The notes under the pieces are model-generated. The model ran no database searches. It saw nothing but the letters and a program-made list of their open reading frames with translations, and was not told where the DNA came from. A program made the translations under genes and the position numbers. 64,000 bases of DNA from Thermoplasmata archaeon (GTDB lineage: Archaea; Thermoplasmatota; Thermoplasmata; Lutacidiplasmatales; UBA184), in the NCBI GenBank assembly GCA_021816865.1, contig JAKAWX010000003.1, positions 34,681 through 98,680 on the forward strand, in the 5' to 3' direction. Each line of letters starts with the position of its first letter. Within the stretch, counting starts at the first letter, position 1. This document shows positions 29,033 through 50,969 of this stretch, one piece after another.

Positions 29033-30321
29033 TCTCACGTCATCCTGTTCTCACGGCTCCTTCGACTCCCGTTGCCGTGGACGTTCGGTTGCGTCGGCGA
29101 GGGACGAGTAAGGAACGGGGTTCGCTCGGTCGACCCTGCCTTTAGACCACACCAGCTACTTCCGGCCGTGACCATCGGTTCCGATCCCTCCCCGAGCGAT
29201 GATCACACGCACCCGATCCCCAACGGGGCGAAGAGATGCCCGAGGTCGCCGGGGTGCGTACGGTCGTCCCCGGGGTCCGGGCTGGTGGGGTCCTAGCTCG
29301 AGGACATCAAGTCTTACTCCGGCCACCGAGACACCCCCGCTACGGCGCGGGCCGGTCGAGCCGTTCTCGGTGCCGCCAGCGTTTCGTCCCACCCTTTCGA
29401 CGAGAAAGTGCGACCGGGTCCCGTCGTCGGTCGCACCGGCCGGACGGTTGGCGGCCTCGGGAGAGTGGGCCAATCCGGATTCCCCCCGTACTTTCGGGTG
29501 CGCTCGTCTGCGCACGCTCCGTGGGACATCGTCGCCTATTGCCAAGGCAGAAGACTGCCGCTGAGGGGGGCGACAAGTACGATCTTGGCCACCGCACTGG
29601 GTGCCCCCTCGACCCCGATGGACGTCAGAGGGGACGACGGGCGTATCTTGGCGACCGCCTCGAACCGGCCGTCCGTGGCGTGGGTCGTTGGTCTAGAGCC
29701 GGGATCTTTGGACAGGGAGGAACGGTCCAGCGGGGCCGTTGCGACGCTCGAATAGCGGGCGGTGCTCGGGACCGGGCTCCCGTATTTCGCGAGTCGACGG
29801 CGGGCTCCGCGGAGGACGGAACCACGACAAACCGCCGAGATCTTCTCCGCGCCGTACGCTCTGTGTCCGGGTCATTCGAGTCCCGACGGAAGGTTGAGCG
29901 AGCTCGTGTCGCCGTGCGGGGAACGGGGGGGCGTGGGAGGACCCTCTCGGCACGAAAAGCCGGCCGGGCTCGTCAAGTTACGTACGAACGGTCCGGGAAG
30001 GCGAAGGCCCTCCGGACGCGGGTCCCGCGTGGTTCGAATGGCGAAGCACGCGGGTTCCTCCGTGAAGGCGGCTCGCGGTCGGTCTGCGTTCGACGAACCC
30101 CGACCGTGCAGAACTCCTGCTGCGCGAAACGGCTCGGCCGCCGTCAAGACCTTCCGAGCCGTCGGAAGGCACTCTGTTTCTCCGACTCCTCAAGCACGCT
30201 CGTGAGCTCGAGCGAGTTTAGTTCGTCGGCGCAATCAGTAACCTTACCCCACGGCGCCTGATCGGGGTCGGAGCCGAGCCTGTGACGTCGGAGGCCACTC
30301 TTTACCGTAGTCGACCGAACC

Positions 30322-30711
30322 TCAAGCAGGCGGGACAAAGAATTCGATCCAGATCCCGTTGGGGTCCTGAATGTAAGCCCAGCGGTGTGCAGGGTCTTTC
30401 AACTCAAGATGAGCCGGGTATCCTGCCTTCGTCACCTCGGCAAGTACCGCGTCCAAGTCCTTCACCTCGAATCCGAGGTGGTCGAGCCCCTCACCAACCT
30501 CATACTTTGTATCGAACCGGTTCCCCGGGGGGTAGTAGTTCAGCTCGAGTAGGTGTCCGCTGCTCCCCAAGGCAAGGAGCACGACCTCCCCTCGCGTGGT
30601 GGCTTGCGTGAACCGATCCACTTCTTTCATGCCCAGGACACTCGTGTAGAACTTGACCGACGCTTCCAAGTCCTTCACTCGAATGCCCGTGTACCCGAAC
30701 GCAGCTTGCAT
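30322..30711 (-). CDS. Glyoxalase/VOC family protein (lactoylglutathione lyase-like)
   Basis: GIRVKDLEASVKFYTSVLGM...HLGFEV..., a paired beta-alpha-beta-beta-beta pattern. The ATG at 30711 lies about 34 nt from cttata (30743-30748). Confidence 0.8.
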   Translation of the reverse strand: MQAAFGYTGIRVKDLEASVKFYTSVLGMKEVDRFTQATTRGEVVLLALGSSGHLLELNYYPPGNRFDTKYEVGEGLDHLGFEVKDLDAVLAEVTKAGYPAHLELKDPAHRWAYIQDPNGIWIEFFVPPA

Positions 30712-31220
30712 CTGTCCGCCCCGGCCCGGATTCGCGTTGGGGTATAAGTTTCCCAACTAAGTCAAAGATCGGTGTTCAGGTGGCCTCGTAGACAACGGAC
30801 GCCTTAATCGAACCGACATCCCGAGCTGTCTTCGATAGGACTGGCGATGCGTTCCAGTGACGCAAGGTCGTGTGGGTGAATCGTGGGTGACAACTCCCGC
30901 TCCCGTGGAACGGCCCCTGGGCGAATCACTCCCGCATCGCTCGACCCCCTTGATGCGGTCGTGCGGTCGGCGAGGAGTGTGCCCGATCGCCGACCGTGGA
31001 CTCGAAGCACCGACCTGGTCGATCCCAGGCTCCGAAGAGTTGGCTCCACGCTCCGAAGGCGGTTGCCGGCGGCGAAGCCTCCCGAAGGGTTGGAGGCTCG
31101 GCTCGTGCAAAGGTAGATAGCCCGGAGTCCCATCGTCAAAAAAAGCGGGGTGGCGGGGGCCCGGACGGTCAGCGAGAACGACAGTTTCGCGGACCGCCGA
31201 TACTCCCGAACGAGGGGCAA

Positions 31221-32096
31221 ATGCCAAGGGAAGTCCTTGTGGTCGGTGCGACCGGAACTCTGGGCGGGATGATCTCACGGCGGCTGCTGGACCAACGACG
31301 AGCGGTCCGGATACTGGCCCGGGGTGGTTCGGCCTACCAGCCCCTCGAGGACGCAGGGGCAGAGGTCGCGAAAGGCGACCTGAAGCAGCGGTCCTCGCTC
31401 GACGAGGCTTGCAAGGGCGTCTCCACCGTTGTCACCACCGCCAACTCGGCCCTGAGGGGCCCGCCCGATACGGTTGAGTCGGTCGACCTCGCCGGCAATC
31501 GGAACCTCATCGACGCGGCGAGAGGCGCCGGAGTTCGGCAATTCGTTTTTGTCTCGGCACTCGGCGCGGACCCGCAAAGCCCCGTGCCGTTTATGCAAGC
31601 GAAAGCTCGCACCGAGGCATACCTAAAGGAATCCGGCATCCCCTATACCATTGTCTCGCCGAATCTCTACATGGAGGTCTGGATCGGGATGGTGGTCAGT
31701 GCGGCCCTGCAAGCCGGCCGCGCGGTCACGCTCGTCGGGGAGGGCCGCCGAAGACATTCCTTCATTTCGATGCAGGATGTGGCGAAGTTCGTCACGGCTT
31801 CGATCGATAACCCGGCCGCGATGAACCGGCAGCTGGTGCTCGGCGGGCCCCAGGCCGTCTCGTGGCGGGAGATCCTCGCAACCTTCGAGCGGGTACGGGG
31901 CGCTCGGGTCACCTCCCATTGGGTCGCGCCGGGCACCGAGATCGCTGGCCTGCCTCCGGTGATGGTCGCGATGCTGGGGACGCTCGAGACCTACGACTCC
32001 CCTGTGGAGTCCGACAAGCTCGCGAAGGAGTACGCCGTTTCCCTCACTTCCGTGGAGCAGTTCGCGCGGTCGGCCGCACCGCCGGGCGGGAAGTAG
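31221..32096 (+). CDS. NmrA-like / atypical SDR NAD(P)-binding protein
   Basis: VLVVGATGTLGGMISRRLL Rossmann motif. 291 aa from the ATG at 31221. Confidence 0.8.
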   Translation: MPREVLVVGATGTLGGMISRRLLDQRRAVRILARGGSAYQPLEDAGAEVAKGDLKQRSSLDEACKGVSTVVTTANSALRGPPDTVESVDLAGNRNLIDAARGAGVRQFVFVSALGADPQSPVPFMQAKARTEAYLKESGIPYTIVSPNLYMEVWIGMVVSAALQAGRAVTLVGEGRRRHSFISMQDVAKFVTASIDNPAAMNRQLVLGGPQAVSWREILATFERVRGARVTSHWVAPGTEIAGLPPVMVAMLGTLETYDSPVESDKLAKEYAVSLTSVEQFARSAAPPGGK

Positions 32097-36753: not shown

Positions 36754-37710
36754 GTGCCTTTGGCCGTGACCTCCGTCTCCGTGGTCGTCACCGCCTACCG
36801 GCGCACCCAATACCTTGAGGGGGCGATCCGCACCGCCCTCGAGCAGACCTCCCCCCCCGAGGAGGTAGTGGTCGTCGAGGACAATCCCCCGTACCGTCCC
36901 CCCTCGACCGCAACGGTCGGGTCCACGAGCGTGCGACGGTTCAACCTCTCGCTGCCGAACGTCGGAGAGTCGCTTGCTTTCGGGATCGACCACGCGACCG
37001 GCGACGCCGTCTGCTTTCTGGACGACGACGACCGGTTCGAGCCCGACAAGGTCGCGCGCGCGCGACGCGTCTTCTCCGATCACCCGTCGGTCGTCTTCTT
37101 CCGGCACGCGGTGAGCTACATCGACGGGGCCGACCGCCCGATCCCGCCCCCGCACTTTCCCCAAAGGCCGTTCCCGACCGGTGAAGTGGCGCCGTCCCTG
37201 AGCGCCCTCTCCCGGGCGCAGATGTCGTCGCACGTCTCCTCGATGTCGATCCGTCGGAGCGCGTATGCGGGACAGGCCGAACTGTTGCGTCCGATCCGGG
37301 CGGCCCCGGACCACGCCCTCTACTGGCTCTCGCAGCTTCCCCGAACCCGGACCGTCTGGTACGCCCCGGAGCCGCTCGTCCGGTACCGTCGCCACCCCGG
37401 CAACATGTCCGCGCACCCGGACGAGGTCGTCCGGTACGCCGAGGCCGCCCGCTACATGCTCGAGCGTTCGCACGGGGCGCCCAGCGCGGAACGGTTCGTC
37501 CGAGGGTTCGACCGCTCGATGCGACTTCGCCTCGCCCAAGTCACGGGCCGCCGACCGACCGCTCGCGATGTGACGGCGCAGCTCTGGGATGCCCTCGTTC
37601 GCCTCTCCCCGTTCCACCTTCGCCAGTGGGCGGTGGGCCTGAGGGAGTCGATTCGACCGGGGCGTCGCGGAGCCGCTAGGTCGGCACCGGCGCCGGGCAG
37701 TACGCCTTGA
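36754..37710 (+). CDS. Family 2 glycosyltransferase
   Basis: VSVVVTAYRRTQYLEGAIRTALEQT and FLDDDDRFEPDK (DxD motif). Confidence 0.8.
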   Translation: MPLAVTSVSVVVTAYRRTQYLEGAIRTALEQTSPPEEVVVVEDNPPYRPPSTATVGSTSVRRFNLSLPNVGESLAFGIDHATGDAVCFLDDDDRFEPDKVARARRVFSDHPSVVFFRHAVSYIDGADRPIPPPHFPQRPFPTGEVAPSLSALSRAQMSSHVSSMSIRRSAYAGQAELLRPIRAAPDHALYWLSQLPRTRTVWYAPEPLVRYRRHPGNMSAHPDEVVRYAEAARYMLERSHGAPSAERFVRGFDRSMRLRLAQVTGRRPTARDVTAQLWDALVRLSPFHLRQWAVGLRESIRPGRRGAARSAPAPGSTP

Positions 37711-38650
37711 CGAGGTAGTCCGAAACGTCCTGGATCGTCACGTCCGCGGGCGCGACGCGCTTCAGGTTCGCCAGGCAGAGCGGGCAGGCGGTTACGACCC
37801 GCTTGCTGACCGCGCTCAGCTGGCCGACCCGACGCTTCGCGATCTCGGCCGACTTCCCGGGGAAGAGGCTTTCGAGCGGACCGCCGCAGCAGAACGTGAG
37901 CTTCCCCGACATCTCGGGCTCGAGGACCGTGACCCCGCCTTCCTTCAAGAGCGACCTCGGCTCCTCGAGGACGCCCTCGTAGCGCGCGTAGACGCACGAG
38001 TCGTGGAACGTCGCCGTCTCCCCGAGCTTCGTGGTCGCCCTCAAGCGCCGCTCCGCGAGGACCTCGAGGTAACTCTTCACTTGGACGTCGAATCCCGGGA
38101 CCACGGTGGGGTACACGCTCCGCAGCATGTTGGTCGTGTGCGGGTCCACGGTGATCACGCGGCGAACGCCGTGGCGGCGCAGGGCGTCGGCGACGCGCTG
38201 CGCCTGGACCCGGAACGCGTCGTCGAGGCCCTCGTCGTGGGCGAGCCCGCCGGCGTAGAGGTCGTCCTCGTAGAGGTAGCCGAACGGGACCTGCGCGGCC
38301 GCGAGGAGCTTCGCGATGTTCCGCAGGCGCTCGTCGAACGCAGCCCGCTCCCGCGCCGACGTGCGGGCGAGGAACGGCGTGAGGTTGAGGACCTTGTTCA
38401 TCGAGCGGGCGACGGAAAAGAGCCGGGCGCTCGAGCGGCCCTCGTACTTCGCGAGCTGCCGGCTCATCGCGTCGATCGCCGGGACCATCTGCCACATCTG
38501 GCCGGTGTAGAGGACGGTCTCCCCGCCCCTCGGGATGTTGAGGCCGTGCGTCCACCCGGTGACCGCGCGTCGCCGTAGGGGCAGCGCGCTCTTGCGCTTG
38601 CGAAGGTTGTCGCCGAGCATCCCCAGGGTGCTTTTGATCGGAACCGGCAT
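37676..38650 (-). CDS. HdrB-like CCG-domain Fe-S protein (single intact CCG motif)
   Basis: The C-terminal half carries C-x32-CC-x33-CxxC (DSC...FCCGGP...CPLC). The N-terminal 200 aa contain no Cys. GGGAGG lies upstream of the ATG. Confidence 0.8.
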   Translation of the reverse strand: MPVPIKSTLGMLGDNLRKRKSALPLRRRAVTGWTHGLNIPRGGETVLYTGQMWQMVPAIDAMSRQLAKYEGRSSARLFSVARSMNKVLNLTPFLARTSARERAAFDERLRNIAKLLAAAQVPFGYLYEDDLYAGGLAHDEGLDDAFRVQAQRVADALRRHGVRRVITVDPHTTNMLRSVYPTVVPGFDVQVKSYLEVLAERRLRATTKLGETATFHDSCVYARYEGVLEEPRSLLKEGGVTVLEPEMSGKLTFCCGGPLESLFPGKSAEIAKRRVGQLSAVSKRVVTACPLCLANLKRVAPADVTIQDVSDYLVKAYCPAPVPT

Positions 38651-38666
38651 CTTCGCTCGCCTCCCG

Positions 38667-38975
38667 TCAGGCCTCCGCGAGGCCGTAGACGTCCCGGTTG
38701 ACGACCGTTCGCAGGGTGCGCACGTTCTCGGCGATGTGGATCCCCGCGGGGCAATTCGCCTCGCAGAGGCGGCAGAGGAGGCAACTGAAGATCGTCTCGG
38801 CCTCGCCGAGCACCCCCTCTCGATGGCCGAGGAGAGCGTAGCGGAAGAGGCGGCGGGGCATCAGCTCGACGCCGAGCGGGCAGAGCGCCGTGCACGTGCC
38901 GCAGTTGATGCACAATCGGGCGTCGAACTCGCCGCCCAGCTTGAGCGCGCTCAGGAACTCGGTGTCGACCTTCAT
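38667..38975 (-). CDS. HdrC-like 2x[4Fe-4S] ferredoxin-type subunit
   Basis: CINCGTCTALCP and CLLCRLCEANCP motifs. 102 aa. ATGA overlap with the upstream gene. Confidence 0.8.
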   Translation of the reverse strand: MKVDTEFLSALKLGGEFDARLCINCGTCTALCPLGVELMPRRLFRYALLGHREGVLGEAETIFSCLLCRLCEANCPAGIHIAENVRTLRTVVNRDVYGLAEA

Positions 38976-39223
38976 GGGGTCTCCTCCGCCAGTTGGTAGC
39001 GGTAGTAGTCCTCCGAGCGGGCCTTCGGGAGGTCGCGGACGCGGCCGTAGCGCCGCATCGCCATCACCCACTTCGTCACCTCGGGCGCCGGGACGCGGAG
39101 CGTCGTGGCGAGCTCGGGGATCGTCTTCGGTCCCTCCCGCAGCGCCGCCGCCACTCGGTCGCGCTCGTAGAGCTCGTCCCGCAGGACCTCCCCGAGGTTC
39201 CGCAGGTACTCTTTTCCCGTCAT
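38972..39223 (-). CDS. Small winged-helix-like protein embedded in the Hdr-like operon
   Basis: 83 aa. GPKTIPELATTLRVPAPEVTKWVMAMRRYGRV resembles a wHTH. ATGA overlaps at both ends. Confidence 0.55.
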   Translation of the reverse strand: MTGKEYLRNLGEVLRDELYERDRVAAALREGPKTIPELATTLRVPAPEVTKWVMAMRRYGRVRDLPKARSEDYYRYQLAEETP

Positions 39224-40944
39224 GTCGCCTCCGCGGCGAGCGCGTCGATCATGGCGTGGATCTGCTCGTTCGAGTAGCCCTGGACCGAGATCGCCTGCTT
39301 CGGGCAGACCGGGACGCACGCGCCCTCGCCCTTGCAGAGGACGCCGTTGACCTCGGCGATCCGCCGGTCGCCGTAGTCGACCGGTGCGACCGCTCCGTAC
39401 GGGCACGCCTTCGTGCACTCGTCGCACCAGACGCAGAGCGTCGGGTCGACCTTCGCGACGAGCGGGTCGAGGTCGACGTACCCCTTCAGCAGGAGGCCGC
39501 CGGTCTTGGAGACGGCGGCGAGCGCGCTCGAGACGCTCTCGGCGACGTTCTTTGGGCCCTGCGCGGCCCCGACGATGTAGACCCCGTCGACGACGGTCTC
39601 GACGGGTCGCAACTTCACGTGGACCTCATGGAAGAACCCGTCCTGGCCGATCGGAAGCTTGAGCGCGCGCACGAGGGCGTCGTTCTCCCGGGGAACCATC
39701 CCCGTCACCAGGACCACGAGGTCGGGTCGCATCTCGACCTCCTCGCTGCGCATCAGTCGGTCCTTCACCCGCACGACGAGGCCTCCCTCCTCCCGCGTCA
39801 CCGTGGGGCGCGCCTCCTCGCCGTATCGGAGGTAGACCGAGCCCCCGCGCAGCGCCCGCTCGTAGAGCGTTTCGTACTTGCCGTAGGTGCGCACGTCCCG
39901 GAACAGATGGAACTGATGGACCGTGGGGTCGAGGCCGCTGACGACCGTCGCGAGGTGGGAGGTCGCACTGCAGCAGTAGCGCGAGCAGTAGGTGTGGCCG
40001 CCGGGGGTGTCCGCTCCGTCGCGGGAGCCCACGCAGTAGATGTACGCGATCGACCGCACGGGCCGACCGTGGTACTCGAGTCGGCCCGGATGTTCCGCGA
40101 CCAGCTCCTTCAGCTCGGGCAACGTGATCACGCCTTCGAGGCCGAATCCGAACTCACCTTCCTTCGGCGAGTACGGGTCGAACCCGGTCGCGACGACGAT
40201 CGCGCCCACCTTGAGGCCGATCGTGTCGCCTGTGCGCGTCCGCAACGTGACCGCGAATTCCCCGAGCCGCCCCGTCTTCTCGACGAGCTCGGTCGAGAGG
40301 TAGAGGTTCACGTTCTCGCGGCGCCGGACTTCGTCGATCAGGCCGTCGACGAGCTCGCGCCCGACCTTGTCGTTCGGAAAGAGGGTCCCCCAGCGAGCGA
40401 CCTGCCCGCCCGCCTCCGCGGCCCTTTCGATGAGGTGAACCGAGATCCCGAGATCGCTCAGCGCGAGGGCGGCTCGCAGGCCGGCCACGCCCGCGCCCAC
40501 GACCAGCGCCTGGGGGAGCGTCTCCACGCGCATACGCTCGAGCGGCACCGAAAGCGCCGTCTTGGCCACCCCCGCCCGTGCGAGCTTGAGCGCCTTCTCC
40601 GTCGCGGCCGCACGGTCGTGCGTGTGCGCCCACGAGCACTGCTCGCGGATGTTCACCTGAGTGTACTCGTACGGGTTGAGGCCGGCGCGCTGGGCCATTG
40701 CCCGGAACGTCGCGGTGTGGAGCTTCGGCGAGCAGGAGCAGACGACGACACCGTCGAGCTTCTTCTCCCGGATCTCCTGGATCACCGACTGCTGCGCCGC
40801 GTCCGAGCAGGCGAACATCTGTACCTGGGAGGCGACGACGTCCCCCTCCTTCGCGATCTCCGACCTCACTTTCTCGGTGTCGACGTAGTCCGAGATGTTG
40901 CCGCCGCACTGGCAGACCACCACGCCGAGGCGTCGACCGGTCAT
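39220..40944 (-). CDS. HdrA-like flavoprotein paralogue 2 (N-terminal Cys domain plus C-terminal 2x[4Fe-4S])
   Basis: LGVVVCQCGGNISDYVD, VVCSCSPKLH, REQCSWAH, VVGAGVAGLRAAL, YCSRYCCS, CVWCDECTKACP and CKGEGACVPVCP. Has FPNDKVG where HdrA normally has FPTxDCxxC. Confidence 0.85.
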   Translation of the reverse strand: MTGRRLGVVVCQCGGNISDYVDTEKVRSEIAKEGDVVASQVQMFACSDAAQQSVIQEIREKKLDGVVVCSCSPKLHTATFRAMAQRAGLNPYEYTQVNIREQCSWAHTHDRAAATEKALKLARAGVAKTALSVPLERMRVETLPQALVVGAGVAGLRAALALSDLGISVHLIERAAEAGGQVARWGTLFPNDKVGRELVDGLIDEVRRRENVNLYLSTELVEKTGRLGEFAVTLRTRTGDTIGLKVGAIVVATGFDPYSPKEGEFGFGLEGVITLPELKELVAEHPGRLEYHGRPVRSIAYIYCVGSRDGADTPGGHTYCSRYCCSATSHLATVVSGLDPTVHQFHLFRDVRTYGKYETLYERALRGGSVYLRYGEEARPTVTREEGGLVVRVKDRLMRSEEVEMRPDLVVLVTGMVPRENDALVRALKLPIGQDGFFHEVHVKLRPVETVVDGVYIVGAAQGPKNVAESVSSALAAVSKTGGLLLKGYVDLDPLVAKVDPTLCVWCDECTKACPYGAVAPVDYGDRRIAEVNGVLCKGEGACVPVCPKQAISVQGYSNEQIHAMIDALAAEAT

Positions 40945-43739
40945 GCCTTCGCCTCCGCCCTTGGGACGAGTACCGGGACCTCGATCGACGCGGGCTCGAT
41001 GGGGAGGGGCGGCTTCGGCTCCCGCCGCTTCAGGTACGCCGCGATCTGGGCGGACGCCGCCTCCGAGTGAAGGATCGTATCGGGAATGTCGCGAACGGCC
41101 GTGGCCGAGCCGATGACGAAGACGCCGGGGAGGCTCGTGCGGCCGGGCTCGAGCTCCTCGTTCGTCTCGCGCACGTACGAATGAGCGTCCTTCTCCGGCG
41201 CTCCCTCTGGGAACAACCGGAACGCGCCCTGGTTCGGCAGGAGCCCCGTCGCCAGTACGACGAGGTCGTGGCGCGCCTCCTTCGGCCCGCCGTCCCCTTC
41301 GATGTCCTCGTAGTGGACGATGAGGTCGTTCGAGTCGGTCTCCTCGACGCGGGAGACCTTCCCCCGCGTGAAGTAGACCCCCATGCCCTTCGTCTGCTGG
41401 AAGAACTCCTCGTACCCCTTCCCGAACGCGCGGATGTCGATGTAGTAGATCGTGACGTCCGCGAGCGGGATCGCCCCCATTAGGAGCTGCGCCTGCTTCA
41501 TCGAGTACATGCAGCAGACCCGCGAGCAGAGGCGGTTGCCGACCTGCTCGTCCCGCGACCCCGCGCAGAGGAGGAACGCAACGTTCGTCGGTGCCTTCCC
41601 ATCGGACGGTCGGACGACCGCGTTGAACGGACGTGTCGGGGCGAGGATGCGGTCCATCTGAGGACCGGTGATCACGTTCGCGAAGCGACCGAAGCCGAAC
41701 GCGGGCTTCTGGCGGGCGTCGAACGGGGAGAAGCCGGTGGCGAGCGCCACGGAACCCACGGTCACGGCCTCGTGGCGGGCCCGCATGTCGAGGTCGATCG
41801 CGTCCGCAGGACACGCGGCGACGCATTCCCGACACTCCGAGCAGACGCCGCAGTCGAGGCAGCGGTTCGCGCTCGCGCGCGCGGCCGCCTCCCCCATCGC
41901 GAGCTCGTACGGGGCGAAGGAGGTGAGCCGCTCGGCGACGGGGAGGCGGACGATCGGAATCGGGTCCCGGCGCGTGCCGTGCTCTCGAGCCCTGGCCGCG
42001 ACCGCGCTCCGGTCCGCGACCGGCAGCCGGTCGTCGAACCGGAGACCGTCGTCGGGGGCCTTGCGGAGGAAGCGATCGATGTGAAACGCCGCGCGCTTTC
42101 CCTGGCCGATCGAGGTCACGATCATCGTGGGACCGGTGACCGCGTCGCCCCCCGCGAAGACGCCGGCCATCGAGGTCGCCAGCGTCTCGGGGTCGACCTC
42201 GATCGTCCCGTTCCGCCGGAGCGCGAGCTCGGTGGCGAAGGCCTGGGTGTTGGGCGAGAGCCCGATCGCGGTGATCAGCACTTCGCCGGGGACCGTCTCC
42301 CGGACGGTCGGATCGAACGTGGGCCGGAACCGGTGCTCGGCATCGAAGACCGACGTGCACCGAATGAGCTCGACCCCCGAGACCCGGCGGTCGTAGCCGA
42401 CGACCTGCCCGACACCCCAGGAGTTGGTGATGACCACCCCTTCGTCTTCGGCCTCCTGGACCTCCCAAGGATGGGCGGGCATCTCCGTCCGCGACTCGAG
42501 GCAGTAGAGGCGGACCGATCGCGCCCCGAGACGGAGCGCACTGCGCGCGGAGTCGATCGCGACGTTCCCGCCTCCGATGACCACGACGGCTTTGCCCGCG
42601 ACGTCGGGGGCCTGGCCGTCGTTGACCCGGTGGAGGAACTCCATCGAGTCGATGACGCCGGGGAGCTCCTCGCCCGGCACCGATAGCTTGCGACCGCCGC
42701 GGTCGCCCGCCGCCACGAAGACCGCATCGAATCCGGACTCGCGCAACGCCTTGAGCGAAGTGACCGGGTGGGCGGTCTCGATGCGGACCCCGAGCGCGGT
42801 GATGTTCGCGAGGTCTCGCGCGAGAACCTCCTTCGGGAGGCGGTACGAAGGGATCCCCCATCGCATGATCCCGCCCGGCTCCCGGTCGGCCTCGAAGACC
42901 GTCACGTCGTAGCCGTTCCGGCCGAGGAAGAACGCGGCGGCGAGGCCCGCCGGTCCGGACCCGACGACCGCGACGCGCTGGCCGCGGCGTTCGGTCGGTG
43001 GCCCGTACTCGGGCGCCGGGTGGCCCGCGTAGTACCGGTCGGCCATGAACCGCTTGATCCCCCGGATCGGAACGGTACCCTCGAGCTCCGCGCGGGAGCA
43101 CTGGTCCTCGCACGGTGCGTAGCACGCTCGGCTGAGGACGCCCACGAGAGGGGCGTCGTCGAGGTGCTGACGGAACGCCTTGTCGTACTGGCCGGAGCGG
43201 ACGAGAGAGATGTACCCGTGGGGCTTGACTCCCGCCGGGCACGAGAACGAGCAGGGCGAGGTTCCCACCCGGGTGATGATCGCCTTTTTCGGGACCGCCT
43301 GCGGGAAGGCGATGTGCGCCGCCCGTCGTGCCGCGAGGTCGTAATTGAACTCGTCCGGGACCGCGACCGTGCACGCGGGCTCGCACAGCGCACAGCCGGT
43401 GCACTTCGCCGCGTCGACGAACGTGGGCTTGCGGGTGAGACGGACCTTGAACGCTCCGTCGCCGACCGGTGTGATGTCGTCGACCTCGGAGTAGACGAGC
43501 GTGCGCACGTTGGGGTGGTTGTTCACCGCGGCCATCTTGGGCGTCGAGATGCAGCTCGCGCAATCGAGCGTCGGGAAGACCTTGCTGAGCAAGATCATGC
43601 GCCCCCCGACGCTCGGTTCCTTCTCCACGACGAGGACCTTGAACCCCATATCGCCGAGCGTGAGCGCAGACTCCATGCCCCCGACGCCCGCGCCGACGAC
43701 GAGAACGTCGTAATCGGTCTTCGCGCCGTCCGCGGCCAT
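40941..43739 (-). CDS. HdrA-like flavoprotein with an inserted GltD/NfnB-type NAD(P)H oxidoreductase module
   Basis: HdrA parts: VLVVGAGVGGMESAL, VFPTLDCASCISTPKM, CTGCALCEPAC ... CLDCGVCSECRECVAACP, LCSRVCCMYS. Inserted module (about aa 158-560): SPCSFSCPAG..ACYAPCEDQC.., VAVVGSGPAGLAAAF, VVVIGGGNVAIDSA, GVFAGGD. Confidence 0.85.
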   Translation of the reverse strand: MAADGAKTDYDVLVVGAGVGGMESALTLGDMGFKVLVVEKEPSVGGRMILLSKVFPTLDCASCISTPKMAAVNNHPNVRTLVYSEVDDITPVGDGAFKVRLTRKPTFVDAAKCTGCALCEPACTVAVPDEFNYDLAARRAAHIAFPQAVPKKAIITRVGTSPCSFSCPAGVKPHGYISLVRSGQYDKAFRQHLDDAPLVGVLSRACYAPCEDQCSRAELEGTVPIRGIKRFMADRYYAGHPAPEYGPPTERRGQRVAVVGSGPAGLAAAFFLGRNGYDVTVFEADREPGGIMRWGIPSYRLPKEVLARDLANITALGVRIETAHPVTSLKALRESGFDAVFVAAGDRGGRKLSVPGEELPGVIDSMEFLHRVNDGQAPDVAGKAVVVIGGGNVAIDSARSALRLGARSVRLYCLESRTEMPAHPWEVQEAEDEGVVITNSWGVGQVVGYDRRVSGVELIRCTSVFDAEHRFRPTFDPTVRETVPGEVLITAIGLSPNTQAFATELALRRNGTIEVDPETLATSMAGVFAGGDAVTGPTMIVTSIGQGKRAAFHIDRFLRKAPDDGLRFDDRLPVADRSAVAARAREHGTRRDPIPIVRLPVAERLTSFAPYELAMGEAAARASANRCLDCGVCSECRECVAACPADAIDLDMRARHEAVTVGSVALATGFSPFDARQKPAFGFGRFANVITGPQMDRILAPTRPFNAVVRPSDGKAPTNVAFLLCAGSRDEQVGNRLCSRVCCMYSMKQAQLLMGAIPLADVTIYYIDIRAFGKGYEEFFQQTKGMGVYFTRGKVSRVEETDSNDLIVHYEDIEGDGGPKEARHDLVVLATGLLPNQGAFRLFPEGAPEKDAHSYVRETNEELEPGRTSLPGVFVIGSATAVRDIPDTILHSEAASAQIAAYLKRREPKPPLPIEPASIEVPVLVPRAEAKA

Positions 43740-44165
43740 CTACGCCTCCGCGGCGACCGACGCGAGGTCGTCGAGCGCCTTTCCGAATTGCTTCATGTGG
43801 TTGACGAACGGCTCGGCGCACACCGAGCAAATTGCCGCCATCTTGACCCGCCCGGTGTCGAGGCCGTTCTTCTGGAGCAACGCCTGGGACCGCGTCACGA
43901 CGTCGGCCGTGCGACCGACGCAATCCGGAAGCAGCGCGCACTCCGGTCCGTCCGCGGCGATGAAGACGCCATCGAACCCGGCCTTCAGGGCGTGGAGGAC
44001 CCAGGTCGGATTGATACCGCCCGAGCACGGAACGGCGATGACCTCGACGGAGGACGAGTAGTCCATGTGAGCGCTTCCGGCGAGGTCGATCCCCATGTCG
44101 GAGATCGCGTTCGTCGAGAAGACCAGCACGCGGGGTCGGTGGCCGGTCGCGCCCGCGTCGGTCAC
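43740..44165 (-). CDS. MvhD-like (methyl-viologen-reducing hydrogenase delta subunit family) [2Fe-2S] protein
   Basis: RVLVFSTNAISDMGIDLAG...VEVIAVPCSGGINPTWVLHALKAGFDGVFIAADGPECA. The GTG at 44165 overlaps the tusA-like stop by 1 nt. Confidence 0.8.
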   Translation of the reverse strand: MTDAGATGHRPRVLVFSTNAISDMGIDLAGSAHMDYSSSVEVIAVPCSGGINPTWVLHALKAGFDGVFIAADGPECALLPDCVGRTADVVTRSQALLQKNGLDTGRVKMAAICSVCAEPFVNHMKQFGKALDDLASVAAEA

Positions 44166-44419
44166 TACTTGCCTCGCCGCAGGTAAACGCGCCAGAGTCC
44201 GCCCTCGGGGATCGTCCCGAGATACTCGTGCCCGACCTTCCTGGCCCAGAGCGGGACGTCCTCGGTCGTTCCCTCGTCGGAGGAGATGACTTCCATCACG
44301 CCGTGCATCGGAACCGACGGGACCGTCCGCTTCGCCTCGAGGAGAGGGCCCGGACACGCCATCCCGCGAGCGTCAATCGACTTGTCGACCTTGAGGTGCC
44401 GCAACTCCTCGATCTCCAT
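44165..44419 (-). CDS. tusA: TusA/SirA-like sulfur carrier protein
   Basis: 84 aa. DARGMACPGPLLEAKR contains the conserved CPxP Cys motif. Confidence 0.8.
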   Translation of the reverse strand: MEIEELRHLKVDKSIDARGMACPGPLLEAKRTVPSVPMHGVMEVISSDEGTTEDVPLWARKVGHEYLGTIPEGGLWRVYLRRGK

Positions 44420-44678
44420 GCCCCTTCCTCGAACCCCTGACCTTCGGTGAGGGATATGAGAGCGCAGTCAACGAAGCTTGACTATGCCGTCCGTCGGCGA
44501 AGCGAGCGCCCGCCGGGGGTGCGACACATCGACACGGTGCGAAACGTCGCGGCGTTCGATCCGGTTCCGTGACCCCCGGTTCGTCCGGCACGAGATCGAC
44601 ACCGGCCCGCGCCGATCGACAGCCCGCGTCGGGTTCGATCCCGCCGCGCAGGGCACCCGTGGCTCGATCAGACTCGGG

Positions 44679-44893: not shown

Positions 44894-46192
44894 GTGGTCG
44901 ACTTGAAACCGGTACGGGCGTTCCATCCGGACCCCCGTCGGGGGTCACCGGACCGACTGGTCTGCCCGGTCTACGACACCCTCTCGGAATCCGAGCTCGC
45001 GCGGTACGCGGCCCACCGCCACAACGCGGCGCGGTTCGTTACCCGGCCGAAGGACGTTCCGGTCGGACGGTTCGTCGCGGAGGCGGCGGCACGGCTCCGC
45101 GAAGCCCTCCGGTCGGAAGTGTTCGTGCAGGACCCCCGGCCGGCGTTCTACGTCTATGGGATCCGCTACTTCCCACCCGACGACCTCCTCGAGACGATCG
45201 ATCCCAGGCAACGACGCGCCCGCTACCTTCTGCTCGGCCTCGTCGGCGCCCTCGACTTCGACACGATCGAACCCGGACAGGTGGCGATGCACGAGCGAAC
45301 GTTCGCCGACCGGGTCGAAGAGCGCGTGGCGCTCACCGATGCCACGGGGATGAGCTTCGCCCCGATCATGGCGGGCTACCACCGGCCCGACCACGCCCTC
45401 AACGACCGGCTCGAGCGGTGGCTCGGGCTCGACCGCCGGGGCCTCGCGTTCGACGGCGACGTGCCCCCGCTCGCGGAAGCCGTCCTCGAAGGGACGACCC
45501 ACCGTCTCTGGCGGATCGACGAGCCGTCACGCATCGAGGAGATCTCCCGAGAGCTTCGTTCGTATCGGGTGCTGGTCCTCGACGGGCACCACCGCTTTAC
45601 CGCAGCGGCCCTGCGCCACTCCGCCGGTCGACGGTCGGCGCCGCTCGCGATGCTCGTGGACGGGGAGGACCGCGCCCTACGGGTACTCCCGTGGCACCGG
45701 GTGCTTCCCGCACACGGCGGCGTCTCGTTCGCCGAGATCGTCGGCGCGGCGCGTCGGGAGTTCCCGCGGGTCGAGACCGTGGAGCGACCCGGAGCGGTCG
45801 AAGGGGTGATCGAGCGACTGGGCGAGATGCGTCGCGAAGGCCGGCGGGGGTTCCTGGCGCTCGACGGGGGGTCGATGGCCGAGGTCGGCGGCCCGCCGAG
45901 TTCGGATGTTGGCGCGGACTTCGACCTCCTCCACGGATTCCTCGAGGGTCGGCTGGGGGTCGACCCCCACGAGCTCGAGTTCGTCCGCTCGCCCCGTGCG
46001 GCGTTCGACCGCGTCACCGCCTCGCGCGGGGGCCTTTCGGACGGGTCGGCGTTCCTGGTTCCGGGACTCACGGAGAAGGGGATCGAGGAGCGGGCGTTCG
46101 GATCCGGAACGATGATGGCCCACAAGTCCACGATGTTCCTGCCCAAAGTGGCCGACGGAATGATCTTTGCCCGGGCGGACGCGTCGAACTGA
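44894..46192 (+). CDS. DUF1015 family protein
   Basis: MVDLKPVRAFHP....VCPVYDTLSE at the N-terminus and LDGHHRF in the middle match my recollection of DUF1015. Confidence 0.65.
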   Translation: MVDLKPVRAFHPDPRRGSPDRLVCPVYDTLSESELARYAAHRHNAARFVTRPKDVPVGRFVAEAAARLREALRSEVFVQDPRPAFYVYGIRYFPPDDLLETIDPRQRRARYLLLGLVGALDFDTIEPGQVAMHERTFADRVEERVALTDATGMSFAPIMAGYHRPDHALNDRLERWLGLDRRGLAFDGDVPPLAEAVLEGTTHRLWRIDEPSRIEEISRELRSYRVLVLDGHHRFTAAALRHSAGRRSAPLAMLVDGEDRALRVLPWHRVLPAHGGVSFAEIVGAARREFPRVETVERPGAVEGVIERLGEMRREGRRGFLALDGGSMAEVGGPPSSDVGADFDLLHGFLEGRLGVDPHELEFVRSPRAAFDRVTASRGGLSDGSAFLVPGLTEKGIEERAFGSGTMMAHKSTMFLPKVADGMIFARADASN

Positions 46193-46235: not shown

Positions 46236-48365
46236 TCAGAGCGGACGGCGATAGGGACGCCCGGTGGTCCCGGTTCCCGGGGAGACGGGCGGGACGTTCG
46301 GGGGCGGTCCGGCGGGGACCATGCGGAGCGGGGACGACGCGGTCGGGTGCACGGGTCGGCCGAGCTTCTCCCGGAGCCAGTGGCGGACATCGAAGAAGTA
46401 CATGTTCCCGTAGGGACAGGCCTCGACGCAGTCGCCGACGCCGCAGCACTTCGAGCTGCGGAACTCGCCCTTCTGCCGGAAGTGCCCCGGCATGTCGACC
46501 AGCCCTACCGGGCACGACTTCGCGCAGTCGACGGTCGTGCAGCGACGACAAACCTCCTTGTCCCTCACTTTGAGACGGAAGAACCCAAGCCGCCCGAATG
46601 CCGCCGTGATCTGACCCGTGTAGCACCAACCCATCGTGACGCAGCTGTAGTTGCCCGAGTAGGGGATGGTGACGAACAGGACGTACCAGAGGACGCCAAA
46701 GTAGAGTGCGTAGAGGAACGCGGTCGGGTCGGCGCCAAGGACCCTGAGGTCCCAGATGCCGACCTGGTCGAGGTACGAAGCGGCGGAGGCGAGAACGAGC
46801 GAGACCATCACGCAGGCCGTCGTGACGGAGTACGCCGTCGACAAGCGGCTGCTGAGGTACTTGCGGGCAAGGGGGGAGGTGCGGTTGAAGCTCTTCATCG
46901 CGTCGATCGTCGTCCCCTGGAACATCAGCGGGGCCGTGCAGAAGACCGAGCAGACGACCCGACGGCCGAAGAGGACCGCGAGGAGGCCCACGACGGCGTA
47001 CGTGGCGAGGAGCACGACGAAGACCGAGGTCGCGAGCGGCGCCGAGCCGATCCCCATGCTCCATCCGAGCACGGGCACTGCCGGGCCCCGGGGAAATGTC
47101 GGGAAGACGAGCGGGTAGTACACGCTCGGAAAGAACACCGCGAATGCGGCGTAGCTCCCCATCATGAGGGCGAGGCGCACCCGGGTTTCGCGCGAGCGCG
47201 TCTCGCGGAACTTGAAGCAGACGAGCGCGCCCATCTCAATCCCCATCATGACGAGGAACCACGTCGACCCGGTGGTGAGGGCGACGAACCAGAAGATGTC
47301 GTAGAGCGCGCGATACGCGATCCCACCTCCGCCCCCCGAAAGCGGGAGCAGGCCCCCGCTCCCGAAGAACGAGGGCCCGGCGATCGCAACGTCGAGAAGC
47401 GCCCCCATGAACACCTCCGCCACGAAGATCGTCCCGAGCAGGACGACCGACCAGCCCGGCCGCAGCGTCCAGGGCGTCGTCGGTCCGTCGGTGAAACGGG
47501 CCGGCCGCGTCAGCGCGCCAAAGAAGATCACCATCTCGATCACGACCGAGAGGGCGAAGACGGTCGTCGACCCGGTTTCCTTCCAGGCGTAGAGCCCGGC
47601 CATCATCCCGGCGTAGACCGCGAGCAACTGCACCAGGTAGGAGGCGAGCCCCGCCTCGACGTTGCGGTGCCGGTAGAGGAACTCCATCACGAAAACGACC
47701 AGGACGATCATGGCCGCGCTCGAAGCGGCGATTGCGAGGTCGGCCCAGAGCGCGCCCGCGAGAGCCGGCGGGGAGAACGCCATGATCAACGCCTGCCCAC
47801 CGAGGATCGCGACGACCGGCCGCGAGAGGCGGTCGCGAAGGAGGGCGGCGGACAGGAACATCTCGGCGGCCATCGTGAAGAGGAACCAGGGAGAGTCGAT
47901 CGTCGACGCGACCCCCGAGACGATCCCCGGGAGGCTCCCGCCCCCGAACCCGACGGTGGATCCGGCCGCGGCCGAGAAGGTCCACCCCATCAGGAGCTCG
48001 TTGGCCAGAACGAGAAGCACGATGCCCGCGACGAACGCCCCGCGATGTTTCAGGATCGGCGGAGATGCACCGCCCTCGACGGAAGTCCGGTGTCTCGCTT
48101 CCTCGAGGAATCCCAGGAACACCTGGACGACGCTCACCGCCATGAGCGCGCTCGCGACCCAGAAGCCCTCTACTAGGGCCGGGGTCCCGGGATCGGAGTA
48201 GTACACCGCCGCGCCGGCGAGCATCGAGACCATCATCAGGAGGAGGAAGACGACCGTCGACGCCGGCAGGGCGGTACGGGCGTCGGCCGCCCAGCGGATC
48301 AGGTAGGCGGTCGCGGACGCCATCGCCGCCGCGAGCGGAACGAGAACCACCCAGGTTGCGATCAT
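46236..48365 (-). CDS. Large integral membrane protein fused to a NapH/polyferredoxin-like Fe-S domain
   Basis: 709 aa. About 450 aa of TM helices are followed by VCSVFCTAP..., more TM segments, and CRRCTTVDCAKSCP plus CCGVGDCVEACP. Confidence 0.75.
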   Translation of the reverse strand: MIATWVVLVPLAAAMASATAYLIRWAADARTALPASTVVFLLLMMVSMLAGAAVYYSDPGTPALVEGFWVASALMAVSVVQVFLGFLEEARHRTSVEGGASPPILKHRGAFVAGIVLLVLANELLMGWTFSAAAGSTVGFGGGSLPGIVSGVASTIDSPWFLFTMAAEMFLSAALLRDRLSRPVVAILGGQALIMAFSPPALAGALWADLAIAASSAAMIVLVVFVMEFLYRHRNVEAGLASYLVQLLAVYAGMMAGLYAWKETGSTTVFALSVVIEMVIFFGALTRPARFTDGPTTPWTLRPGWSVVLLGTIFVAEVFMGALLDVAIAGPSFFGSGGLLPLSGGGGGIAYRALYDIFWFVALTTGSTWFLVMMGIEMGALVCFKFRETRSRETRVRLALMMGSYAAFAVFFPSVYYPLVFPTFPRGPAVPVLGWSMGIGSAPLATSVFVVLLATYAVVGLLAVLFGRRVVCSVFCTAPLMFQGTTIDAMKSFNRTSPLARKYLSSRLSTAYSVTTACVMVSLVLASAASYLDQVGIWDLRVLGADPTAFLYALYFGVLWYVLFVTIPYSGNYSCVTMGWCYTGQITAAFGRLGFFRLKVRDKEVCRRCTTVDCAKSCPVGLVDMPGHFRQKGEFRSSKCCGVGDCVEACPYGNMYFFDVRHWLREKLGRPVHPTASSPLRMVPAGPPPNVPPVSPGTGTTGRPYRRPL

Positions 48366-48547: not shown

Positions 48548-49325
48548 CGGGGGGGTCCGAACCGTGACCTCACCGCGGAACTCCTGTCGGCCGTGGGGAT
48601 CGGAGGCGGCCGCGCCGGGGTCGGTCCCGCGGACGCTTCCGCGAGGCCCGACGGCATCGGGCGCCACCGTCCCGGGCGGCCGTCGAACGCCCGCCACACC
48701 CCGCGGTTGCGCCCGGCCCGCGCCACGGCGGCACGAACAACCCCCGGCCCTGCGCATCGTTCCGAGGGGCGGACGGAGCAAAGCCCGGGTGGCGCCCTAC
48801 AAAAGCGACTTCGCGAGCCGGTAGCGCGGAGCTGCTCGAACGGTTACGACGCTGCGGCGAACTGCGCGGGGCGGCCGGTGGTCGAGGGTCCTCTCTGGCT
48901 CCAACTGCCGCAACCCGGCGCCCCGCCTCCCCCGGACGGCGGAGCGTCACCGCTTGGGGGTCTGCTCCGGGCCGGGGGACCGATCGGGGGCGGGGATTCG
49001 CGGTCGTGGCTTCGCTCGTCGACCCGGAGAGCTCGAAGGGCATCCGAGCGCGGGGCTCGGGACCGAGGACGGGCACGTCGGCCGCTCGAGCGCGGTGGTC
49101 TTCCGCCGGCGCCCTAAGTGCGGCTCGAGCGGGGTCTCCTCTGCATTCGCAACGCGCCGCTCATGCGGGAGTCGGATCGGAACCGGCAGGACGCTGCCCC
49201 GCGGGGAAGCCGGACGCCCGGATGTCCCGCGAAGGTTCGCAACGTATTTTGACCGGAAGTGCGTGGGTTCTCTCGCTCACGGGACGTGGACCTCTACCGT
49301 CCTCGCTCCGGCGATCGAGACTTCG

Positions 49326-50969
49326 ATGAGTTCCCGGGATCCTCGTCCAGGGAGTTCTCCCCCCGAGCCCGTTCGACCCCACATCGAGGTGGACGGCCCG
49401 ACCGCACCGAGGTTCGCCGAGATACTCACTCCGGAGGCGCTCGACTTCCTCGGATCCCTGCACGCGCGGTTCGACACCCGTCGCCGGTCGCTCCTCGCGG
49501 CACGCGGTGCGTTCCGGGAGATGGTCACCGCCGGTCGGCTCCCCGACTTTCCCCCGGAGACCCGATCGGTGCGGGAGGGCGCGTGGACGGTTCCACCTCC
49601 GCCGGTGGACCTCGAGGACCGCCGAGTCGAGATCACCGGCCCCGTCGACCGGAAGATGATCATCAACGCGCTCAACTCGGGCGCCCGGGTTTACATGGCC
49701 GACTTCGAGGACGCCCACTCCCCAACGTGGGCTGCGACCGTCGCCGGCCAGGTGAACCTTTGGGATGCGGTGCGGCGCCGCATCTCCTACGAGGCTCCGG
49801 ACGGACGGGCGTACCGGCTCGCGGAGCGAACCGCCACCCTCCTCGTCCGGCCCCGGGGGTGGCACCTCGAGGAGCGACACGCCCGGGCCGACGGGACCCC
49901 GCTCTCGGCCAGCCTGTTCGACTTCGGGCTCTACTTCTTCCACAACGCGAAGGAGCTCCTCGCCCGAGGTACGGGGCCGTACTTTTACCTCCCCAAGATC
50001 GAGCACTACCTCGAAGCCCGGCTCTGGAACGACGTCTTCCGGGCCTCGGAGGCGGCGCTCGGGATCCCGGTCGGGTCGATCCGGGCGACCGTCCTCATCG
50101 AAACCCTGCCCGCCGCCTTCCAGATGGACGAGATCCTCTACGAGCTGCGGGAGCACTCGGCCGGGCTCAACTGCGGGCGTTGGGACTACCTCTTCAGCTT
50201 CATCAAGCAGTTCCGCGACGATCCGACGTCGAGGTTCCCCGACCGGGCCCGTCTCACGATGGACACGGGGTTCCTGACCGCGTACTCGCACCTCCTGATC
50301 CAGACCTGTCATCGTCGGGGGGCCCATGCGATGGGGGGGATGGCCGCGCAGATCCCGATCAAGAGCGACCCCGTCGCGAACGCCGAGGCGATCGCCAAGG
50401 TGGTCGCGGACAAGGAACGGGAGGTCCGGGCCGGGCACGACGGCACGTGGGTCGCGCACCCGGGGCTCGTCCCCATCGCCGCCGCGGTCTTCGACCGTGA
50501 GATGCGCGGGCCGAACCAGATCCACATCCCCCGCACCTGCCCCCCGATCGGGCCCGCGGAGCTTCTGGCCGTTCCTCCGGGCCCGATCACGGCGGACGGC
50601 GTCCACCGGAACGCGCGGGTCGCGCTCCTCTACCTCACGGCATGGCTCGGCGGGAACGGCTGCGTGCCGATCGACCACCTCATGGAGGACGCCGCCACCG
50701 CCGAGATCGCCCGGACCCAGCTCTGGCAGTGGGTCCACCACGGGGCCCGTCTCGAGGACGGTCGGCCGATCGATGTCGCCCTCGTCCGTACCGAGCTCGC
50801 GCGAGAGCTCGAGCGGCACCGGGCCGAGGCGGAGACCGAGGCCGTCCGGACGACCGCGACGACGGCCGCCGCCCTGCTCGAGGAGCTCATTACCCGTCCC
50901 GGGCTCGAGGAGTTTATCACGCGGTATGCGTACCCGTACTTGGGCGACGCGCCGGAGAGCGGAGCATGA
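49326..50969 (+). CDS. aceB: Malate synthase (A-type)
   Basis: [47 protein letters not shown] and [11 protein letters not shown] motifs. 547 aa from the ATG at 49326. Confidence 0.9.

Follow-up and report, generated by a model that had tools for sequence, protein, structure and literature searches.

Flavoenzymes of the heterodisulfide reductase (Hdr) type serve as the model for flavin-based electron bifurcation, while cytoplasmic sulfur metabolism is entered through the TusA/DsrE relays. In the M. wolfeii complex, MvhD feeds the C-terminal ferredoxin domain of HdrA and then the FAD, from which one branch leads over the cluster of the thioredoxin-reductase-like (TrxR) domain to HdrC and HdrB, and the other over the N-terminal cluster, with Cys197 of the partner HdrA as fourth ligand, to the inserted ferredoxin domain and ferredoxin (PMC9012536). 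HdrA proteins with an inserted GltD/NfnB module have been described as HdrL in 2009 (PMC2702500), as HdrA-NfnB in ANME-1 (PMC9012536) and as type III HdrA, in which the insert was proposed from structure to replace the ferredoxin site by an NAD(P)H site (PMC12054007). The sHdr systems comprise type I, shdrC1B1AHC2B2, and type II, shdrC1B1AHB3-etfAB-emo (PMC11094781, PMC6067878). Here, a seven-gene operon that combines elements of these systems is described at positions 37676-44419 (minus strand) of a 64,000-nucleotide stretch of a Thermoplasmata archaeon genome (contig JAKAWX010000003.1, hereafter the window). The operon probably encodes one soluble multi-subunit Fe-S flavoenzyme of the Hdr/Qmo kind, and the reading preferred here, to which a probability of about one half may be given, is that sulfane sulfur bound to TusA is reduced to sulfide at the expense of NAD(P)H, in reactive-sulfur homeostasis or trafficking of a heterotroph.

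The seven open reading frames (ORFs), all with uninterrupted translation, follow one another in the order tusA, mvhD, hdrA(GltD), hdrA2, p83 (a small winged-helix protein of 83 aa), hdrC and hdrB. The tusA and mvhD genes overlap by 1 nt (TAGTG, with GTG as the start of mvhD), mvhD abuts hdrA(GltD) (TAGATG), ATGA overlaps join hdrA(GltD) to hdrA2, hdrA2 to p83 and p83 to hdrC, and a spacer of 16 nt that contains GGGAGG lies between hdrC and hdrB. All five ATG starts from hdrA(GltD) through hdrB are preceded at 5-10 nt by a GGAGG-like motif, with weaker matches 5' of tusA and mvhD (GAGGAAGGGG and GCGAGG), and the GC content of the operon (69%) equals that of its flanks. An earlier sequence-only reading of this DNA had claimed seven coupled minus-strand genes, and each of the junctions was found as it had described. 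Its domain assignments for all seven genes were likewise recovered by Pfam/NCBIfam-type scans and fold matches, including those of a tiny winged helix-turn-helix-like protein (by AlphaFold2 and Foldseek) and of an HdrB-like protein with only one CCG motif (by PF02754 and the Cys pattern), and its proposal that the NAD(P)H input is built into HdrA would fit the confirmed GltD/NfnB insert.

The profile of the fused HdrA was scanned against one genome per GTDB species, which gave more than 590 relatives, and 80 loci were kept, consisting of group A (27 loci, TusA-linked), whose fused HdrA is 52-82% identical to the window protein, and group B (53 loci, HdrL type), at 35-44% identity. Wherever the contig allows, the 27 species-level genomes of group A carry the order tusA-mvhD-hdrA(GltD)-hdrA2-p83, so the gene order noted in the sequence-only reading is by no means confined to the window; they belong to Thermoplasmata, Dehalococcoidales, Gemmatimonadales, Deferrimicrobia/"delta", Alphaproteobacteria, Bacillota, Actinomycetes, Ignavibacteriales, Aminicenantes and Verrucomicrobia. 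The overlapping junctions are the same as in the window in all three relatives checked, and an arrangement that is met again in 27 independent genomes goes far beyond chance. The tusA gene is present in 24 of the 25 related loci with enough upstream DNA. Group B, which includes Desulfobacterales, Dehalococcoidia and Thorarchaeota, possesses a full-length HdrA with the insert and a canonical mvhD downstream, with tusA and p83 absent from its 53 loci.

Group A varies only at the cluster end. Thus, 12 loci, the window among them, end with hdrC and a one-CCG hdrB; 8 end with a QmoC-like protein of 380-430 aa that matches QmoC over its full length (NF038018, E 1e-54 to 1e-63) and lack a CCG protein; and in a locus of a Bacillota metagenome-assembled genome (MAG; L013, 9806-10660) p83 is followed by a DrsE_2 (DsrE-family) gene, with no hdrC, hdrB or qmoC. 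Genes of the DsrE family (PF13686/PF02635; DsrE2 model E 8e-22) lie within the cluster in 19 of the 27 relatives, and a regulator of the ArsR type stands immediately 5' of tusA in about 18, most of the bacterial ones showing the alpha2 and alpha5 two-Cys pattern of the BigR/SqrR-type persulfide sensors. Hence, the link to TusA-borne sulfur proposed in the sequence-only reading gained strength from the tusA frequency and from the adjacent DsrE and BigR-like ArsR genes in most relatives, while its remark on the lack of DsrE is correct for the window and wrong as a trait of the system. The closest named relatives of the window proteins are those of Thermoplasmata MAGs, and a 79%-identical locus is flanked by the archaeal housekeeping genes FEN1, primase, RIO1 and PAC2; since archaeal and bacterial copies are still 62-67% identical, their similarity points to horizontal spread of the module.

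The larger of the two HdrA paralogues, HdrA(GltD) (932 aa; 40941..43739, minus strand), starts directly at the GxGxxG motif of the FAD site and is devoid of the N-terminal and C-terminal HdrA domains. Its HdrA halves, at residues 1-125 and 626-905, enclose Fer4_20 (160-236) and Pyr_redox_2 (255-547), and the GltD/NfnB module sits inside the 'inserted ferredoxin' domain, flanked by the first (113-123) and the second (627-643) Cys motif of the latter, which is the insert position of HdrL and type III HdrA; however, HdrA(GltD) is not the otherwise full-length HdrA with an N-terminal domain that occurs in the recovered HdrL-type loci. The insert matches the NfnB/GltD families at E 1e-60 to 1e-142, and residues 161-640 match structures of NfnA, NfnB and GltD (E 1e-85 for PDB NfnA 9n5u and 1e-62 for T. 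maritima NfnB 4ylf_B), while the halves match 5odc_A. The equivalents of Cys194 and Cys197 are Cys60 and Cys63, in the sequence FPTLDCASC (DCASC), which is invariant in the relatives; altogether 21 Cys are invariant among the orthologues, and the half with the TrxR domain carries the cluster site C-X12-C-X3-CC (C725/738/742/743).

The second paralogue, HdrA2 (574 aa; 39220..40944, minus strand), consists of an N-terminal Fe-S domain, an FAD/TrxR domain with a four-Cys cluster (C304/320/324/325) and a C-terminal 2x[4Fe-4S] domain, and scores E 1e-106 to 1e-136 against HdrA models. It is colinear with 5odc_A over residues 4-235 and 240-569, skipping the 5odc residues 236-314 of the inserted ferredoxin, and the segment 'FPTNDCSIC', which bears Cys194/Cys197, is replaced by 'FPNDKVGRE', leaving no equivalent of Cys197. 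Both proteins align with 5odc_A and keep the four TrxR Cys and the GxGxxG motif of the methanogen HdrA, the domains of the single four-domain HdrA of a symmetric homodimer being split between them. At residue 540 of HdrA2 (39325-39327) the second C-terminal [4Fe-4S] motif reads CKGEGAC, with Glu for the second Cys; Glu also stands there in the related loci L002-L004, L026 and L075, whereas L007, L018 and L021 have Gly and the remaining relatives Cys. The motif points to a cluster with three Cys or with alternative ligation in the path to MvhD.

Because the N-terminal domain and the Cys197 equivalent have been lost complementarily in the two proteins, HdrA(GltD) and HdrA2 are predicted to form an obligate heterodimer. 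According to Chadwick et al., two HdrAs in tandem, of which one has lost the N-terminal domain and the other Cys197, should pair as asymmetric heterodimers (PMC9012536). The window pair fits this rule exactly, and therefore it is most economical to assume that each heterodimer holds one fully wired flavin site. Regarding the electron donor, the pyridine-nucleotide loop of HdrA(GltD) (residues 411-416, 42493-42510) reads YCLESR against the NfnB-type YRR(T/S), and, since Leu-Glu-Ser stands in place of the Arg-Arg loop of NfnB, NADH is probably the cofactor of the window enzyme. The loop is YRR(S/T/R)R in 13 relatives, for which NADPH would probably be preferred, whereas the window and 11 relatives have CLES(R/P), CLEK, SLES or SLEK, so that the nucleotide preference has probably been switched within the clade. 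The PDB searches gave no solved structure of a GltD-fused HdrA, tblastn of the fused HdrA against a plasmid collection gave GltD-like partial matches only and no fusion, and no NfnA/PyrK-like gene, as would be paired in NfnAB, was found in the operon or its flanks.

TusA (84 aa; 44165..44419, minus strand) is a sulfur carrier of the TusA family (PF01206, E 1.7e-18, 66.6 bits against the cut-off of 28.6) with the CPxP Cys of the fold family, here Cys22 in CPGP, which is invariant in 25 orthologues; it is presumably a persulfide carrier. The adjoining MvhD-like protein (FlpD; 141 aa; 43740..44165, minus strand, GTG start) belongs to the FlpD family (PF02662, E 5e-25, 88 bits against the cut-off of 22) and can be aligned to the M. 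wolfeii MvhD, 5odc_D. When the canonical Cys are taken as the five columns common to the M. wolfeii and the HdrL-linked MvhD, the window protein keeps only two (Cys47 and Cys76). The three others are lost and Cys82, Cys113 and Cys116, the last two as a new CxxC, are gained in 27 of 27 TusA-linked loci, against none of 29 MvhD sequences from 28 HdrL-type loci. No solved structure of this swapped-Cys variant was found by the PDB sequence and fold searches.

The protein p83 (38972..39223, minus strand), translationally coupled on both sides, reached no Pfam or NCBIfam threshold and has no Pfam match. Its AlphaFold2 model (predicted local distance difference test, pLDDT, 86) is placed by Foldseek next to SmtB, HlyU, SqrR and CzrA (probability 1.0, TM about 0.66), which indicates the winged-helix topology of ArsR/SmtB proteins; however, the sensing residues of ArsR are lacking, as p83 is Cys-free, with no Cys in 22 orthologues. 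It is present in 22 of the 23 related loci whose DNA reaches the position, always at the same place, and its family is small, as 70 of 1.8 billion representatives belong to it at E<=1e-10. The PDB fold search gave no solved structure with p83 as an Hdr subunit. That p83 may be a stoichiometric subunit is suggested by where its gene lies, by the translational coupling and by the high conservation.

The HdrC-like protein (102 aa; 38667..38975, minus strand) is a minimal 2x[4Fe-4S] ferredoxin (Fer4_17, E 2e-10) that matches HdrC (TIGR03290) at E 1e-12 and the N-terminus of QmoC at E 6e-9, and its eight Cys are all invariant among orthologues. The HdrB-like protein (324 aa; 37676..38650, minus strand) carries a single CCG domain at 214-297 (PF02754, E 2e-10) with the full five-Cys motif C219, C254, C255, C289 and C292 (C219-X34-CC-X33-C-X2-C). 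Its N-terminal half is a pseudo-CCG with no Cys in 12 orthologues, where 'CPHC' of EtfD, the nearest structure, aligns with 'DPHT', and hence it is not the two-CCG HdrB with two noncubane clusters. The AlphaFold2 model (pLDDT 80) has its best fold matches in M. smegmatis EtfD, LutA and HdrB.

Together, these parts allow a scheme for the reduction of TusA-bound sulfane sulfur. Cys63 of HdrA(GltD) would complete the N-terminal cluster of HdrA2, and HdrA(GltD) would supply the inserted ferredoxin domain, with the ferredoxin exit of the HdrA core occupied by the GltD module, so that NAD(P)H and the HdrA flavin would exchange electrons over the FAD of the GltD module and a chain of five or six [4Fe-4S] clusters. 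The core would have two further ports, namely, the four-Cys cluster, leading through HdrC to the single noncubane cluster of HdrB, and the modified MvhD; flavin-based bifurcation or confurcation may become possible through this third branch. TusA would deliver or receive protein-bound sulfane sulfur (persulfide), in most relatives with the assistance of DsrE-family carriers under a persulfide-sensor-like ArsR repressor, and the persulfide/disulfide redox chemistry would be coupled to the pyridine-nucleotide pool. The HdrB cluster and the modified MvhD are the candidate docking sites of TusA. DsrK, which the HdrB/HdrC pair resembles, acts on a protein-bound trisulfide. As a pair with one noncubane cluster, they also resemble sHdrB3 (PMC11094781). 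The chemistry is taken to concern protein-bound sulfane sulfur because of the universal TusA with its Cys, the DsrE carriers and the persulfide-sensor-like repressors, and the heterotrophic context of the window suggests reactive-sulfur homeostasis rather than lithotrophy.

Several observations weigh against this scheme. The potential of the persulfide/sulfide couple may be too low to drive the reduction of ferredoxin from NAD(P)H, which leaves bifurcation, and with it the ferredoxin partner supposed in the sequence-only reading, speculative, and p83 may, on its modelled fold and with a palindrome 5' of tusA, be a regulator only. The tusA gene is missing upstream of mvhD in L020 (Dehalococcoidia UBA6808, 1-1000), and the window itself lacks the DsrE and ArsR genes. 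EtfD and LutA, as the best fold matches of the HdrB-like protein, are reminders that the CCG proteins also perform chemistry unrelated to sulfur. Finally, HdrC and HdrB are not universal, being replaced in the 8 QmoC-like loci and lacking altogether in L013, while TusA is retained, and therefore the CCG cluster cannot be the general TusA site that the sequence-only reading had implied; the only invariant neighbours of TusA are MvhD, both HdrAs and p83. A wider proposal can be made only tentatively, by which the operon represents a third, hitherto unrecognised TusA/DsrE-fed class of Hdr-type enzymes besides Dsr and sHdr, with a bifurcating or confurcating five-protein core (TusA, ligand-swapped MvhD, the HdrA heterodimer with its NAD(P)H module and the Cys-free winged-helix subunit) that would tie protein-persulfide chemistry directly to the pyridine-nucleotide pool, soluble one-cluster HdrCB or quinone-linked QmoC as the plug-in, a new sulfur site at TusA/MvhD and a horizontal mode of spread among archaea and bacteria of soils and sediments.

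Rather unlikely, in our estimate, is an alternative in which the five-gene core is a Qmo-like electron hub, NAD(P)H-linked and bifurcating or confurcating, with an exchangeable high-potential partner (quinone via QmoC or, in the window, a soluble disulfide via HdrCB) and the sulfur reaction at the TusA/MvhD end, for example, the oxidation of sulfide or persulfide, NAD(P)+ taking one share of the electrons and quinone or disulfide the other. The variable terminal module next to the invariant TusA-MvhD adjacency speaks for it, as does the Cys swap of MvhD, with its new CxxC, found only where TusA is present. In known Hdr complexes MvhD is the adaptor that docks a variable partner enzyme, and the transfer from sulfide (-270 mV) to quinone plus NAD+ is by estimate thermodynamically feasible, which also counts in its favour. 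However, catalysis at MvhD is to our knowledge without precedent, the five Cys may just re-ligate the same MvhD cluster, and the window version is soluble, without the quinone link.

It is improbable that the operon encodes a generic NAD(P)H:disulfide reductase for a low-molecular-weight thiol or a protein disulfide, related to Flx-Hdr, in which TusA would be a redox-regulatory or assembly accessory. FlxABCD-HdrABC offers a parallel to the set of HdrA, HdrB, HdrC and MvhD with an NADH module, the CCG motif is complete and the window holds no other sulfur-trafficking genes, whereas a TusA with the catalytic Cys is conserved in the cluster across domains of life, DsrE carriers and persulfide-sensor-like repressors co-occur in most relatives, and HdrB is dispensable in one third of the loci.

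The handling of selenium, by NAD(P)H-dependent reduction of selenium species on a YedF/TusA-like protein, is very improbable. The matches of TusA to YedF models (E 1e-6), of the GltD part to YgfK (E 2e-78) and of HdrA(GltD) and HdrB to 'diclust_near_Sec' (NF045663) point weakly in this direction, but they lie far below the family cut-offs and concern shared domains, TusA scores better on TusA models, the neighbours in relatives are sulfur genes of the DsrE/BigR type, and no selenocysteine codons or sel genes were seen; this reading was rejected as a domain-level resemblance. TusA proteins being multifunctional, tusA might serve tRNA thiolation or molybdenum cofactor synthesis beside an unrelated regulator p83, but such a chance neighbourhood is the least probable of all and was rejected on synteny, given the overlapping start and stop codons and the identical order in 24 of 25 loci from archaea and many bacterial phyla.

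On one side of the operon, beyond an intergenic region of 474 bp, a DUF1015 gene (44894-46192, plus strand) runs divergently from tusA, and on the other a convergent family-2 glycosyltransferase gene (36754-37710, plus strand) overlaps the end of hdrB; these two genes mark its limits. The DUF1015 gene occupies the place where the relatives carry the dsrE and arsR genes. The intergenic region holds a strand-neutral, perfect 6-6-6 palindrome, AGTCAAcgaagcTTGACT (44466-44483), located 47-64 nt 5' of the tusA ATG and found only here in the window against 0.03 matches expected; sites like GTCAAC-N-GTTGAC stand 5' of the first cluster gene in the Thermoplasmata relatives L001 (8095) and L026 (8399). 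It is a possible, putative operator for p83 or for a repressor of the ArsR type. The window annotation is only partial at about 10.2-16.3 kb and 56.6-64 kb; genes for hydrogenase, formate dehydrogenase, DsrE or LbpA were not found in its annotated parts, to which extent the same statement of the sequence-only reading stands, and neither hydrogenase nor formate dehydrogenase genes were found beside the related clusters. A tblastn search of the whole window with the DsrE and ArsR proteins of relatives gave nothing better than E 0.3.

Beyond the DUF1015 gene, a 709-aa protein (46236-48365, minus strand) combines a C-terminal 2x[4Fe-4S] domain and a weak similarity of NapH/MauN type at 451-654 with an N-terminal part of about 450 residues without family match. 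It was rejected as a partner of the operon, being separated by the divergent gene and not conserved beside the related clusters. Genes of the glyoxylate shunt (malate synthase and isocitrate lyase), at 48954-52306 (plus) and 52352-55243 (minus), are adjoined by acyl-CoA dehydrogenase and family III CoA-transferase genes, and those for the 2-oxoacid dehydrogenase E1 alpha, E1 beta and lipoyl-bearing E2 lie at 17338-20759 (minus), followed by a MOSC-domain gene (20873-21403, minus). The glyoxylate shunt, acyl-CoA metabolism and 2-oxoacid dehydrogenase genes together indicate an organotrophic lifestyle. Elsewhere in the window, an ORF at 24200-25309 (plus) carries the homeodomain-like HTH_32/HTH_23/HTH_29 domains typical of IS630-type transposases, and the region 26000-32000 has a lower GC content (0.64-0.66 against about 0.70) and several ORFs without family match; here the DNA may be mobile or of recent acquisition. 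Two genes of the isochorismatase family and a second one of the PEP-mutase/isocitrate-lyase family (6490-7116, minus; 11957-12646, plus; and 9266-10162, plus) occur near ABC transporter, CoA-transferase and amidohydrolase genes, and this region may be a catabolic island unrelated to the operon.

Among the described systems, those with HdrL, HdrA-NfnB or type III HdrA (Desulfobacterium autotrophicum, ANME-1, Bathyarchaeota) share the same insert of about 500 residues, the adjoining mvhD and the predicted use of NAD(P)H. However, at 35-44% identity the window protein belongs to a separate clade, its N- and C-terminal domains are found on the second HdrA instead, the Cys set of MvhD differs, and TusA and p83 occur only in the window clade. 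In the tandem or fused HdrAs of ANME and in the Moorella MetFV-HdrABC-MvhD, one copy has Cys197 without the N-terminal domain, and the ferredoxin domain at the C-terminus is split complementarily, both as in the window (PMC9012536). The copy bearing Cys197 here also carries the GltD module, and the partners are TusA, p83 and a one-CCG HdrB in place of FdhAB, F420 modules or MetFV.

With sHdr, the operon shares the clustering of Hdr-like Fe-S flavoprotein genes with TusA (the DsrE-family sulfur transferases of sHdr having counterparts in 19 of 27 relatives but not in the window), the small hypothetical gene between hdrA and hdrC/B, the binding of one noncubane cluster by the HdrB-type subunit, as in type II, and an overlap of taxa (Thermoplasmatota, Chloroflexota, Actinobacteriota, Bacillota). 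Nevertheless, the defining gene set (PMC11094781) is absent, as the operon contains one hdrC, one hdrB and two large hdrA genes with no etfAB; the sHdrC1B1 pair, LbpA, the lipoate-maturation genes, EtfAB and EMO are missing, the window HdrAs are of the large methanogen type against about 340 aa for sHdrA, and MvhD and the GltD module are not part of sHdr. No LbpA or lipoate-assembly genes were found in the annotated window parts, where the sole lipoyl domain is that of an ordinary 2-oxoacid dehydrogenase E2 (17338-18675).

QmoABC, the quinone-interacting membrane-bound oxidoreductase of sulfate reducers, similarly combines two different HdrA-like flavoproteins with an MvhD-like element, and a full-length QmoC-like subunit occurs in 8 relatives. 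However, the window system is soluble, with HdrC and HdrB, a 102-aa HdrC-like protein standing in place of the haem b membrane fusion of QmoC, there is no nearby aprAB, Qmo has neither the NAD(P)H module nor TusA, and the window HdrAs score best on methanogen HdrA models. FlxABCD-HdrABC of Desulfovibrio, with NADH as the donor, an MvhD-like adaptor, an HdrABC core and DsrC as the proposed disulfide substrate, shares the logic of the operon; here, in contrast, the NAD(P)H module forms part of HdrA itself, at the ferredoxin branch, rather than being attached via FlxABC/FlxD, TusA has one Cys where DsrC has two, and HdrB has one cluster instead of two. The two-CCG HdrB, the hydrogenase or formate dehydrogenase and the CoM-S-S-CoB association of the methanogen Hdr are not matched by the operon.

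No description of TusA with MvhD/FlpD in such a cluster was found in the literature, although Appel et al. 2021 (BBA 1862:148379) may mention it, and the matches concern sHdr, Dsr or unrelated Mvh-Hdr clusters, while the databases name the parts "FAD-dependent oxidoreductase", "MarR family regulator" or "(Fe-S)-binding protein". If the proposed function is true, the operon would stand for a new route of sulfane-sulfur turnover in abundant but uncultured soil Thermoplasmata, Actinomycetes, Chloroflexota and others, and would offer a natural experiment in the re-plumbing of HdrA, with an asymmetric dimer, an NAD(P)H module for the ferredoxin site and HdrCB or QmoC outputs. The changed Cys set of MvhD and the constant presence of the winged-helix protein are peculiarities open to direct test. 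Even as an NADH:disulfide reductase only, it would still be a widespread, mis-annotated enzyme. The 'distinct architecture' suggested in the sequence-only reading has to be divided: the GltD/NfnB-inserted HdrA and the heterodimer logic had already been published, while the operon lies outside the defining gene sets of the known systems. The building principles, namely, the inserted HdrA, the asymmetric heterodimers and the TusA/DsrE-accompanied sHdr, are not new, whereas the TusA link, the swapped-Cys MvhD, the ArsR-fold p83 and the interchangeable output modules are apparently new, as far as searched.

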